Source: Isurus oxyrinchus
Taxonomy: Eukaryota
Reading direction: 5' to 3'
Length of the DNA: 64,000 nt
Assembly (NCBI GenBank): GCA_026770705.1
Contig: JANJGN010000071.1
Coordinates: 124,001 to 188,000, forward strand
Part shown: positions 25,595-30,836 of the stretch, piece after piece
How the letters are laid out: each line of letters begins with the position of its first letter
Numbering within the stretch: position 1 is the stretch's first letter
The notes under the pieces: model-generated
The model's database searches: none
What the model was told of the DNA's origin: nothing
The model's input: only the letters and a program-made list of their open reading frames with translations
Made by a program: the position numbers and the translations under genes

Positions 25595-25719
25595 GTAAGT
25601 CTGAAGATTTAACTTGATTTTAATATAAACATTTGTTTAGGATTAATTGGACAGTTTTTACAAAGGGCCAGCACAGGCACGATGGGCTGAGTGGCTTCCT
25701 CCTGAGCTGTGAGATTTTA

Positions 25720-26180
25720 AATTCTTTCATCGAATGTGACTGTCACTGGCGTGGCCAATACTAATTGCCCATTCCCTAAATGCCCCTTGAGAATGAGGTG
25801 GTGAGCTGCCTTCTTGACCCGCTGCAGTCCATGTGGTGTAGGTACACCCACAGTGCTGTTAGAGAGGGAGCTCCAGGATTTTGACCCAGCGACAGTGAAG
25901 GAACGGTGATATATTTCCAAGTCAGGATGGTGAGTGACTTGGAGGGGAACTTCCAGGTGGTGGTGTTCCCATGTGTCTGCTGCCCTTGTCCTTCTAGATG
26001 GTAGAGGTCGTGGGTTTGGAAGGTGCTGTTGAAGGAGCCTTGCTGAGTTGCTGCAGTGCATCTTGTATATGTTACACACACTGCTGCCACTGTGTGTTCG
26101 TTGTGGAGGGAGTGAATGTTTAATGTGGTGGATGGGGTGTAGATCAATCGAGCTGCTTTGTCCTGGATGGTGTCGAGATT
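25720..26180 (-). mobile_element. LINE 3'-end fragment (duplicated at 28185-28650)
   Basis: Reverse complement of the LINE 3' end seen at 32500-32930. Confidence 0.75.
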
Positions 26181-26317
26181 CTAGATTCTGTGCTTTGTGC
26201 AGAAGTCATTTAAAGAGACAGTCCAGTCATTGGTGTAAGGTTACAGTGGGCTCTGTGTCTGTGCTGCACTGACTCTCTGCTATGTGATAACCACAGTGTG
26301 ATATTGTGTTATTGCAG

Positions 26318-26399
26318 GAGAAAGACAGCGATGGAGGAGAGAGTTTCAGGGACCAGTGACATTGCATTGACCCCCAGTTCACTCTCTGTGAAGCACCAG
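26318..26399 (+). CDS. Siglec gene B cytoplasmic exon 1, cassette a
   Basis: Phase 2-0; RKTAMEERVSGTSDIALTPSSLSVKHQ; flanked by ttgcag and CAG|GTACAG. Confidence 0.82.
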
Positions 26400-27384
26400 G
26401 TACAGGAGCTGTTTACACTCACTCCAAAGCTTCAATCTCAGTGTGTAGACAACACATGTCCCAGATTCCCTGCCCAGTTACCCACTGATTTGTACCTGTG
26501 GAGTCAGCAATGGTTCAGTATCATGCTGTCTCTCTGTTATGACACAGCAACTGGTAAAGCTGTTGTTTAAAAACCCAGAGGGAAACTTTAAACAACTGTC
26601 ATAACTTATATTTCCCAGTGGACTGTTTGAGATGCATCTCTAAATTCAGGAATAAGACCACCAGTTCTCGAGATGGGTTTATATCAAACTAAATGAGACA
26701 TATATTAATTTACACAAGTTAAACATATGCACATGGTTACAAACTAGTATTATCATAACTTTTTAACAAATTCTCAAACTAATCTCCTCTAAGACAACCC
26801 ATAGTCTTTAAGCAGATTCCAGGCATTTTCACCTCACAAATTCCAATTTCTCTCTCTATCTCAACCTCCCTTTCTTTCTCTCTCTTTCTCTCTGTCTCAT
26901 CCTCTCTCTGATTACAAGGTTCATGTTATTGAGCCTCACGTCAGGCACCTGTGTGCAGAATCCAAGCCGTCACTCACCAGAGCCATTACCGATTGAGTGC
27001 GAGACTGACAGAGGGTCAGTACTGAGGGAGCGCTGCACCATCGGAGGGTCAGTACTGAGGGAGCGCTGCACTGTCAGAGGGTCAGTACTGAGGTTTTTGC
27101 TGCGCTGTCGGAGGGTCAGTACTGAGGGAGTGCGAGACTGACAGAGGGTCAGTACTGAGGGAGTGATAGACTGACAGAGGGTCACTATTGAGGATGTGCT
27201 GCACTGTTGGAGGGTCAGTCCTGAGGGAGCACTGCACTGCCATAGGTGGTTTCTTTCATAAGACATGGGAGAGAGAGTTAAACCCACTGAGACACGACTG
27301 ACATTAACGAAGCTGCACAATAATTTAACCCTATCAGTGCCAGTAAATAATGTGAGGATGTCTTCTGTTTCCATTTCTCTGTAG

Positions 27385-27633
27385 GGTAAACAGAACGTGC
27401 TGATTACTGAGCCCCGGAACACAACCAGAGACACAACTAGTGAGGGGGAGACCCCAGCTCCCCGGGGTCTCTCTGAAGATGCAGTGGGAGGCGATGCTGG
27501 ACTTGGGAACCCCGGCAAACCTGAAGAGTTTCTCTACGCCAATCCCCAAGTTTTGAGGGTGTCCAGTGATGATGGGTCTGTCCACAGGGAAGAGGAGACG
27601 GAATACGCACAGATCAGGTTTGAGCATAACTGA
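27385..27633 (+). CDS. Siglec gene B terminal cytoplasmic exon, cassette a (FLYANP, TEYAQI)
   Basis: Phase-0 acceptor, ORF to TGA 27633, ITSM TEYAQI. AATAAA at 28160-28165. Confidence 0.85.
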   Translation, partial: GKQNVLITEPRNTTRDTTSEGETPAPRGLSEDAVGGDAGLGNPGKPEEFLYANPQVLRVSSDDGSVHREEETEYAQIRFEHN

Positions 27634-28782
27634 ATGAGAAATGGGGAGTGGGAGTGAGGAGATGTGGGTGTGCGGGTAGGGATTGAGATCCCTGGGAACA
27701 GGAAACAACCCACTGGGGGAGAGGGGGAGAGAGGGAGGAAGGGATGGAATTGGGCTGCGGTTGGTGTGGTTTGGAATGAAATGCTTCTCCAGAGAGGACT
27801 GGATGCTGAGCCATTGAGGAGTGAGATTCACTGTCTCTCTCTCTCTCTCTCTCTCTTCCTCTCTGTCTCTCTCTTTCTTTCTGTGTCAGTCTCTCATTCT
27901 CTATCTCTTGCTCCTCCTTTAAGATGACCCTTAATGACTGACTTTGTTGACTCAGCTGTTGGTCTCCTGTCCCTAATATCTCCTCATGTGCCTCAGAGTC
28001 AGGTGAAATGTGACTAACAATCCCCGGATGAGCCTTGGGACATTTTGCTACATTGAAGGTGCTATATAAATGCAAGTTGTTGCAGTAACTCTGATCTGCT
28101 TCGATTAACAATGGAACCACAGAGGTTCCTTCGACAGGGCGTGTGTGCAGCAGGGTCACAATAAATACATTGAGCTGTGAGATTTTTAATTCTTACATCG
28201 AATGTGGCTGTCACTGGTGATGTCCGCATTGATGCCAATCTCTAACTGCCTTTGAGAAGGTGGTGGTGAGCTACCTTCTTCACCCGCTGCAGTGCATGTG
28301 GTGTAGGTACACCCACAGTGCTGTTAGAGAGGGAATTCCAGGATGTTAACCCAGCGACAGTGAAGGAACGGTGATATATTTCCAAGTCAGGATGGTGAGT
28401 GACTTGGAGGGGAACTTCCAGGTGGTGGTGTTCCCATGTGTCTGCTGTCCTTGTCCTTCTGGATGGTAGAGGTCGCGTATTTGGAAGGTGCTGTTGAAGG
28501 AGCCTTGCTGAGTTGCTGCAGTGCATCTTGTAGATGGTACACACACTGCTGCCACTGTGTGTTCATGGTGGAGGGAGTGAATGTTTAATGTGGTGGATGT
28601 GGTATGGATCAATCGGGCTGCTTTGTCCTGGATGGTGTCGAGCGTCTTGATTCTGTGCTTTGTGCAGAGGTGATTTAAAGAGAGAGTCCAGTCATTGGTG
28701 TAAGGTTACAGTGGGCTCTGTGTCTGTGCTGCACTGACTCTCTGCTATATGATAACCACAGTGTGATATTTTGTTATTGCAG

Positions 28783-28864
28783 GAGAAAGACAGCGATGGA
28801 GGAGAGAGTTTCAGGGACCAGTGACATTGCATTGACCCCCAGGTCACTCTCTGTGAAGCACCAG
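28783..28864 (+). CDS. Siglec gene B cytoplasmic exon 1, cassette b
   Basis: Near-identical duplicate of 26318-26399 with intact splice sites. Confidence 0.8.
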
Positions 28865-28999
28865 GTACAGGAGCTGTTTACACTCACTCCAAAGCTTCAA
28901 TCTCAGTGTGTAGACAACATATGTCCCAGATTCCCAGCCCAGTTACCCACTGATTTGTACCTGTGGAGTCAGCAATGGTTCAGTATCATGCTGTCTCTC

Positions 29000-29932
29000 T
29001 GTTATGACACAGCAACTGGTAAAGGCTGTTGCTTAAAATCCCAGAGGGAAACTTTAAACAACTGTCGTAACCTATATTTCGCAGTGGAATGTTTGAGATG
29101 CATCTCTAAATTCAGGAATAAGACCACCAGTTCTCAAGATAATTTTATATCAATCTAAATGAGACATTTATTAATTTTCACAAGTTAAACATATGCACAT
29201 GGCTACAAACTAGTATTATCATAACTTTATAACAAATTCTCAAACTAATCTCCTCCAAGACATCCCATAGACTTTAAGCAGACACCAGGCAAAGCATTTT
29301 CACCTCACAAATTCCAAATGAGGTTCCTTTCACTTTGGTTCCTTTGCAGACAGGTGTAGGCTTACAGCTGCTTTGATGTTACAAGCCTCTGCTCTGCACA
29401 CACAAAACTGCTCAAGTTATACCCAGCTCTTGAGTGTGAAGAAGATGGAGATTGATGGGCTCTTGATTGGTCAGGGGATCAATGGTTAGGAGAGAACGTG
29501 GGAGAATGGGGTTTGTGAAACATATCAGCCATGTATGAATGGTGGAGCAGACTCGATGGACCGAATGGTCTAATTTCTCCTCCTATGTCTTATGGTCTTA
29601 TGGCTTCTGTTTGAAGGTAAATTCGCAATGTATCATCAGGACCTTTGAACTCCATCTCTTCCAATAATAAATCCCCTTTCATCGTATCAATTTTATTAGT
29701 AATATAAACGTTGATTGGTTTAAGATTTCACTCTCAGACTTTGAATGTTTTATTTAAAAATGCAAATTACCACTTTACCTCTTTGTTTGCATCTCAAAAC
29801 TACTATACATCAAAGCACCCAGACTGGCTGGCTTTAATCCAATTAAAATACACACAGACACACACACAGACTAAACCTCTGTTTAAAAAGACAGTTTGCA
29901 TTTATAATACAAACATTAAAAGATTAATAACA
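29000..29932. mobile_element. Solo LTR (complete in cassette b, 3'-deleted in cassette a at about 26536-26850)
   Basis: TGTTAT...ATAACA inverted termini, flanked by ctctc/ctctg. Confidence 0.7.
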
Positions 29933-30393
29933 CTCTGTCTCTATCCCTCCTCTATCCCTCTCTCTCATCCTCTCTCTGATTACAAGGTTCATGTTATTGA
30001 GCCTCACACCAGGCACCTGAGTGCAGAATCCAAGCCGTCACTCACCAGAGCCATTACCGAGGGAGTGCGAGACTGACAGAGGGTCAGTACTGAAGGAGTG
30101 CTGCACTGTCGGAGGGTCAGTACTGAGGGAGTGCTGCACTGACAGAGGGTCAGTACTAAGGGAGCGCTGTATTGTCGGAGGGTCAGCACTGAGGGAGTGC
30201 TGCACTGTTGGAGGGTCAGCACTGAGGGAGTGCTGCACTGTTGGAGGGTCAGTACTGAGGGAGTGCTGCACTGCCATAGGTGGTGCCTTTTATCCGATAG
30301 GAGAGAGAGAATTAAACAAGTCTGCACAATAATTTAACCCTATCAGTGCCAGTAAATGATGTGAGGATGTCTTCTGTTTCCATTTCTCTGTAG

Positions 30394-30642
30394 GGTAAAC
30401 AGAACGTGCTGATTACTGAGCCCCGGAACACAACCAGAGACACAACTAGTGAGGGGGAGACCCCAGCTCCCCGGGGTCTCTCTGAAGGTCCAGTGGGAGG
30501 CGATGTTGGACATGGGAACTCCGACAAACCCGACGAGCTTTTCTACGCCAACATCAACTTTTCAAAGCTGCCCGGCGGTGACAGGACTGTGCACAGGAGC
30601 GAGGACACGGAATACGCACAGATCAGGTTCCAGAAAAACTGA
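30394..30642 (+). CDS. Siglec gene B terminal cytoplasmic exon, cassette b (ITIM LFYANI + ITSM TEYAQI)
   Basis: Phase-0 acceptor, same 249-nt length as cassette a, ORF to TGA 30642. Confidence 0.87.
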   Translation, partial: GKQNVLITEPRNTTRDTTSEGETPAPRGLSEGPVGGDVGHGNSDKPDELFYANINFSKLPGGDRTVHRSEDTEYAQIRFQKN

Positions 30643-30836
30643 GTGTGAAACAGGGAGTGGGGCTGTGGGGTGTGTGCAGCCAACATGGCCAAATAGTAAT
30701 GAACACAAATATGATGTTGCTCAACTTTTTTTTATTGGCTCTGAGTGAGCTTTCTGAATGCTGCACCTTTTTCCATGCTGTAAAAGATTGTGAGAAGCTT
30801 ATGAATTATGTATAATTTTACTTCTGTTAATACAAG

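Follow-up and report, generated by a model that had tools for sequence, protein, structure and literature searches.

A Siglec gene of Isurus oxyrinchus with tandemly duplicated cytoplasmic exons that probably chain into one four-motif tail

Background

The closest described counterparts of the gene treated here are the mammalian CD33-related Siglecs (Siglec-5, -7, -8 and CD33) and MAG. The gene lies in a 64,000-nucleotide stretch of Isurus oxyrinchus DNA (assembly GCA_026770705.1, contig JANJGN010000071.1, positions 124,001 to 188,000, forward strand), called the window below, and its two cytoplasmic exons are duplicated in tandem. It has in common with the mammalian receptors a V-set domain with the YFFR arginine, C2 domains and an uncharged transmembrane (TM) helix. 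According to the accessible part of PMC7823959, Siglec-8 carries a proximal immunoreceptor tyrosine-based inhibitory motif (ITIM) and a distal immunoreceptor tyrosine-based switch motif (ITSM), as does the second tail of the window gene, and its inhibition depends on the proximal ITIM. In the accessible parts of this literature the mammalian Siglecs have one motif pair per tail, whereas the window gene has two pairs from duplicated exons.

Alternative tails on one ectodomain that alter ITIM content are described for CD33 exon 7a/7b (PMC5190023) and for the short and long forms of Siglec-8 (PMC7823959). As far as the accessible text of both sources goes, those isoforms delete motifs, while the duplicated cassette of the window gene, spliced in through a recruited internal donor, would bring an extra motif pair or exchange one for another. 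A further parallel is the composite terminal exon, where use of a 5’ splice site is set against that of a poly(A) signal in the next intron (PMC4227790). In the window, by comparison, the rival of the splice site is likely an old last exon’s own stop and poly(A) signal, putatively internalised by the duplication.

The nearest relatives are RefSeq Siglec/MAG-like models of two sharks, the white shark Carcharodon carcharias (XP_041037215-221, XP_041037155, XP_041037239) and the basking shark Cetorhinus maximus (XP_078389744, XP_078389619). These models are automatic and bear generic names. They have the same exon set, with 84-97% identity per ectodomain or TM exon, and the Carcharodon models have the same tails in the same order, a YxxP-type tail before an ITIM-type one, joined at the same place after TEYAQIR. 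The Cetorhinus double tails are YxxP+YxxP, unlike those of the window gene. The window gene also differs from the shark models in that the 5’ halves of its tails are almost identical and its first V exon is broken. Double-tail proteins are already in RefSeq, unremarked, and alternative tails are known in mammalian Siglecs. No paper on shark Siglec tails was found in a literature in which subscription journals are thinly covered; Siglecs are touched on only in passing in the accessible parts of PMC8455134 and PMC13262535, whose supplements may list these genes.

Results and discussion

The duplicated cassette

The cytoplasmic region consists of a TM exon followed by two units, a and b, each with a short exon (c1) and a longer one (c2). 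The features are as follows.

25498..25594, + strand: TM exon, single, with no charged residue in the helix; its passage into c1 appears as a loose end in sequencing run X15
25704..28170, + strand: unit a; homology to unit b stops at about 27652
26318..26399, + strand: cytoplasmic exon c1a, 82 nt, AG acceptor and GT donor
27385..27633, + strand: exon c2a, with FLYANP (YxxP type), TEYAQI and a stop at 27631-27633; AG acceptor; predicted composite internal/terminal exon
27615..27623, + strand: internal 5’ splice site CAG/GTTTGA, exon end at 27617; use predicted from relatives’ gene models
28160..28165, + strand: AATAAA in untranslated region (UTR) a, 5 nt upstream of the unit junction; intronic when the internal donor is used
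28170..28171, no strand: unit junction; contigs of two organisms span it, each reaching more than 31 nt to either side
28171..30661, + strand: unit b, which contains roughly 600 intronic nt, near 29300-29940, that unit a lacks
28783..28864, + strand: cytoplasmic exon c1b, 82 nt, differing from c1a at 1 position, 28842 against 26377; AG acceptor and GT donor
30394..30642, + strand: terminal exon c2b, with LFYANI (ITIM consensus), TEYAQI (ITSM consensus) and a stop; AG acceptor
31719..31806, + strand: two AATAAA (31719 and 31801) downstream of tail b

Two alignments join the units, 25703-26846 with 28171-29317 (93.1% over 1150 nt) and 26873-27652 with 29940-30661 (81.5% over 783 nt). Both have E=0.0, so a chance likeness is excluded. 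The original prediction described a unit of about 2.47 kb; the unit starts are indeed 2467 nt apart, but the shared homology covers only about 1.95 kb and ends near 27652 and 30661. Its description of duplicated cytoplasmic exons with intact splice sites is borne out by the alignments, the AG acceptors, the GT donors and the open frames. Either cassette reads in frame from TM through c1 into c2, which runs 249 nt to its stop and gives a 111-residue tail in each case. Both cassettes appear usable. The predicted pattern of terminal exons that are nearly identical in their 5’ part and diverge around the motifs also holds, with 81/82 identical positions in c1, 93/93 in the first 93 nt of c2 and 79.4% in the last 156 nt.

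The motifs FLYANP and TEYAQI in tail a and LFYANI and TEYAQI in tail b are present as claimed. Tail b conforms to the ITIM consensus, and tail a departs from it through the P at Y+3. Tail b thus shows the proximal ITIM and distal ITSM-like motif of the CD33-related subgroup. The tail exons have no family match in Pfam. AATAAA signals stand behind both tails, and the one at 28160, which had been noted just upstream of the junction, is followed by T-rich sequence; nothing in unit b corresponds to UTR a.

The unit homology begins at the end of a dispersed repeat (25640-25720 and 28171) that has an 83.6% match at 5614-5674, and the a/b junction shows no obvious microhomology. A minisatellite of about 33 nt is dispersed on both strands (2919-3943, 26984-27250, 30052-30280, 39855-40150, 54186-54463 and 63785-64000), and its copy number differs between units a and b.

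An internal donor that chains the tails

A donor after position 27617, 16 nt before the end of c2a, was absent from the original account. Splicing from it to c1b keeps the frame because c1 (82 nt) and the shortened c2a (233 nt) add up to 315 nt. The predicted chained tail has 216 residues with tyrosines at 80 (YANP), 103 (TEYAQI), 185 (LFYANI) and 208 (TEYAQI). The main mRNA probably splices from 27617 into the second cassette to give this four-motif tail (probability about 0.62), and the single-tail forms are probably side products. Direct joining of c1a to c1b was rejected as the main form, since it shifts the frame and leaves a 42-aa tail with no tyrosine.

The reading draws on the gene models of relatives. 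All 80 returned proteins were examined; they are computed RefSeq models. Tail b had 26 matches, all of them shark proteins and the closest from Carcharodon and Cetorhinus, and searching the full set of 50% representatives yielded 11 matches, in sharks only, as would be expected of a lamniform source. The four top matches score about 1.5-1.7 times the next because each holds two tails in one protein, joined right after TEYAQIR. In Carcharodon, a YxxP tail leads into an ITIM-type tail in 8 proteins and into another YxxP tail in 2; a single YxxP tail is found in 10 and a single ITIM-type tail in 4, with one frameshifted form and three proteins lacking a full tail. The YxxP+ITIM pair is spread over 6 Carcharodon gene models on 4 scaffolds. 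The Cetorhinus proteins comprise YxxP+YxxP (2), YxxP leading into c1 in isoforms of one merged model (7), a single YxxP tail (1), a single ITIM-type tail (5), a merged model with two ITIM-type ends (1) and no full tail (8). The non-lamniform proteins (n=28) have one ITIM-type tail (24) or no full tail (4). YxxP tails run into a c1 exon 21 times (10 in Carcharodon and 11 in Cetorhinus, each isoform being counted on its own), compared with 0/43 for ITIM-type tails. Among the matches found, the YxxP lineage is confined to the two lamniform species.

Nine Carcharodon proteins belong to the EFLYANPQVL class, the nearest one to tail a. Eight continue into c1 and one uses the same donor to enter c2b; none of the nine Carcharodon proteins (0/9) ends at its own stop. 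The mutually exclusive last exons that had been proposed are not borne out, given the in-frame donor and its use in 9/9 matching white-shark models. No short proteins (45-144 aa) resembling tail a were found.

Going by the isoform names, XP_041037215-221 was taken to be a single locus. Three of its isoforms carry the double tail, two are b-only, and one is an a-only product of the internal donor. The predicted junctions from TM to c1b and from c1a to c2b are matched by white-shark isoforms P0035 (X4) and P0030 (X5). In isoform X3 (P0029), the equivalent of donor 27617 gives a shorter, frameshifted product, which a predictor that extends open reading frames is unlikely to have invented. Alternative RefSeq isoforms are usually based on transcript alignments. 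A choice of tails probably exists, as double versus single, because this one locus also has b-only isoforms. The idea of alternative tails thus survives in part, but the choice is probably not between a and b, and a switch between ITSM-only and ITIM+ITSM signalling is too narrow a description; double tail versus b-only is likelier, with a-only as a third form.

In two Cetorhinus proteins (P0043 and P0049, LOC144671591) c1 occurs three times and two YxxP tails are chained, so arrays of more than two cassettes may occur. Single motif tyrosines are lost in P0009, P0012, P0019 and P0058 (Y to C, F or H); because paralogues have lost single tyrosines, the motif content of the tails varies widely across the cluster.

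Strength of the donor and points that weigh against chaining

Donors were scored against the splice consensus and the U1 end. Among the 13 GT sites in c2a, donor 27617 scores highest on both measures (consensus 6/9, U1 duplex energy -6.4), and 8/11 of the gene’s ordinary donors score no higher on match count. Contigs of 4 of the 24 listed runs were aligned, and repeats dominated the alignments; their RNA status was guessed, none being recorded as RNA. X15 was guessed to be RNA; two of its contigs continue from the TM exon into c1 sequence and one spans the c1-c2 splice, and these may come from paralogues. In X15, contigs cover UTR b to a much greater depth than UTR a, and contigs end near the AATAAA behind tail b (X15 at 31815, X20 at 31737). 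Neither observation was used, as contigs cannot show level or ends.

Several points weigh against a chained main form. The donor is weak: among the 354 GT sites in 25590-30650, 31 match the consensus equally or better, and it ranks 33/354 by U1 energy. The unused equivalent in tail b, CAG/GTTCCA, scores barely lower (5/9, -5.6). Tail a retains its stop codon and AATAAA. The joint from 27617 to 28783 is not among the 15 of 900 joints listed, which neither shows nor excludes it, and short reads would not distinguish c2a to c1b from a back-splice of c2a to c1a. A full protein requires the first V-set exon to be skipped because of its in-frame TAG. Near-identical repeats may have led to wrong splicing in the RefSeq models, and some of the scaffolds may represent a single locus as alternative haplotypes. 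Annotation pipelines may discard early-ending isoforms, and for that reason the 0/9 is weak evidence against forms that end at the stop of tail a. In the tree of tails described below, the grouping of tail a with internal white-shark tails falls below the support threshold.

Alternative explanations

The last exons could instead be mutually exclusive, as originally predicted, with tail a ending at the AATAAA at 28160 or unit a being skipped, and the double tail rare or an artefact. The intact stop of tail a, the T-rich sequence behind its AATAAA and the weakness of the internal donor are what such a model expects; in other paralogues, 15 YxxP tails form the true C-terminus, and the b-only isoforms X4 and X5 are in RefSeq. 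The matching tail class nevertheless uses the internal donor throughout. Since the junction cuts 5 nt past the AATAAA, other sequence has probably taken the place of the original cleavage site and its downstream element. In addition, two contigs from guessed-RNA runs span the AATAAA at 28160, although they may be DNA or pre-mRNA. Overall, this arrangement is judged unlikely. It is less likely still that only one cassette matters, the other being a leftover of unequal recombination and the extra isoforms noise or mis-mapping. Near-identical c1a and c1b invite such mis-mapping, the V and C2 exons are likewise duplicated with one V copy dead, and the cluster has broken neighbours. Against this, neither tail has lost its open frame or its motifs, gene models of two shark genera contain chained tails, several Carcharodon models have the YxxP+ITIM pair, and the junction is common to two organisms.

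The duplication is real. The region 19254-37014 is free of N gaps, while the window has 6 N runs elsewhere. Contigs of two organisms also read across the junction with 91-97% identity: record 12 of X15 (organism A) covers 28062-28217 with 4 other letters in 156, and record 21 of X17 (organism B) covers 28089-28258 with 15 other letters in 170 at depth 3. The junction is therefore not confined to this assembly, although either contig may stem from a paralogous locus. Alleles falsely assembled in tandem, which the original prediction had named as a case that would undo it, are thus unlikely. An artefact that wrongly placed two alleles or paralogue ends side by side would fit a window gapped elsewhere, and polishing could produce 5’ halves closer than those of relatives (1/57 aa against 7-12/57 in 9 proteins), but the gapless region, the bridged junction and the same a-then-b order in white-shark models make it highly improbable.

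History of the two tails

A tree built from the 3’ halves of 40 distinct tails (51 columns, with many forks open) sets a YxxP group, made up of both lamniform species and tail a, apart from the ITIM-type tails with support of 95/96. Tail a groups with the internal white-shark tails (85/94) and tail b with the terminal partners of those tails (90/81). The nearest rows agree, being internal tails for tail a (45/51 identical) and terminal partners for tail b (47/51). Because YxxP and ITIM-type tails separate across paralogues, the difference in motifs between a and b predates this cassette pair. Tails a and b likely come from two older lineages brought together by recombination. The pair may have formed when the tail was duplicated and its last copy then replaced, or when a deletion fused the gene to its neighbour’s tail.

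The 3’ part of c2 has 32 mismatches in 155 nt compared with 5.9% in introns (binomial P 5e-10), and 24/29 of its changed codons are non-synonymous. The 5’ coding part is closer than the introns, with 1 difference in 175 nt (P 2.9e-4). At the protein level, 1/57 residues differ between the 5’ halves, in comparison to 7-12/57 in nine double-tail proteins. This excess likeness fits recent gene conversion, and polishing of the assembly is an alternative.

Proposed mechanism

The chained tail would be one of several products. By analogy with the relatives’ models, skipping of unit a or of c2a would give b-only forms (TM to c1b, or c1a to c2b), and splicing of the internal donor to c2b would give an a-only form of 112 aa through a frameshift. 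Exon c2a would act as a composite exon in which the weak donor competes with the AATAAA at 28160, and an a-only form ending at its own stop is possible. As in mammalian Siglecs, sialic-acid binding may lead to tyrosine phosphorylation and to recruitment of SHP-1/SHP-2 on the ITIM and ITSM of tail b. Tail a would contribute another ITSM, together with a YxN site that lacks the hydrophobic residue of an ITIM. YxN is a Grb2-type site by consensus, and both proximal motifs retain it. Forms holding tail b would, on the same analogy, inhibit more than a-only forms. As to origin, recombination among tandem paralogues may have set a YxxP tail before an ITIM tail, with gene conversion later evening the 5’ halves.

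Siglec identity and ectodomain

The remaining exons of the gene are listed below.

4712..4791, + strand: leader exon with ATG at 4752; matches the start of shark Siglec models
10075..10452, + strand: V-set exon 1, broken, 378 nt, with an in-frame TAG at 10242-10244 and without the essential Arg
13644..14012, + strand: V-set exon 2, intact Siglec V with the YFFR arginine (Pfam V-set 2.8e-12, Ig_CD22 1.4e-9; Siglec-5 8.5e-16)
14826..15121, + strand: C2-set Ig exon 1
19664..19945, + strand: Ig exon 2, duplicated
20864..21145, + strand: Ig exon 3, a copy of exon 2 with 89.5% DNA identity including flanks
23016..23291, + strand: Ig exon 4
24284..24577, + strand: Ig exon 5, membrane-proximal

The second V exon is above the cut-off for both Pfam V-set and Ig_CD22. 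Against the Protein Data Bank (PDB), the best 18 of its 36 matches are Siglecs or MAG (Siglec-5 8.5e-16, MAG 3.4e-14). The F-strand arginine has an essential role in Siglecs; YFFRIE in the second V domain aligns with YFFRVE of Siglec-5, and the arginine is missing in the first. The extra Siglec cysteines, CxxxxC in the V domain and a partner in the following C2 domain, are present: CVQIPC in the V domain aligns with CVLVPC of Siglec-5, and the C1 domain has CTFNTTC. C2-set domains and a single TM helix, as expected of a Siglec, are also found. The gene is a Siglec by every sequence criterion checked, and its sialic-acid binding is predicted. Placement in the CD33-related subgroup would follow from the motifs, and MAG scores almost equally on the V domain.

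The tandem V-set exons (10075-10452 and 13644-14012) have 87.7% DNA identity including flanks, and the first can be skipped in frame because it is 378 nt long. The number of V domains per relative’s model ranges from 1 to 8. A C2 exon and its intron are also copied in tandem (19254-19951 and 20086-21151), giving two nearly identical domains, and the relatives have long arrays of this domain.

Cluster neighbours

A leader (46118-46186) and a V exon (about 46950-47282) belong to a second Siglec type, 79% to P0012. This V exon is without 5 residues and breaks before the F strand into unrelated, retroelement-like sequence. In basking-shark models the second-type ectodomain carries the same TM and tail exons. 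At 1343-1480, an exon with a TM-like hydrophobic stretch (with an arginine within it), a short tail and a stop is 93% identical to the end of Carcharodon P0053, which is named Siglec-14. It likely ends an upstream gene.

Implications

A wider and rather doubtful extension is that lamniform sharks have evolved a combinatorial Siglec locus in which the V exons, the C2 exons and the tail cassettes each form arrays. Different motif sets (a, b, a+b or, in the basking shark, more cassettes) would be assembled through regulated splicing and polyadenylation, so that one sialic-acid sensor could be tuned between weak and strong inhibition and take the role of separate paired receptors. The chained tail itself is a specialist curiosity and not a new principle. 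It suggests that lamniform sharks have an enlarged Siglec cluster and, if true, would represent a simple route to a longer immune-receptor tail, in which the last exons are duplicated and a latent in-frame donor before the stop is recruited.

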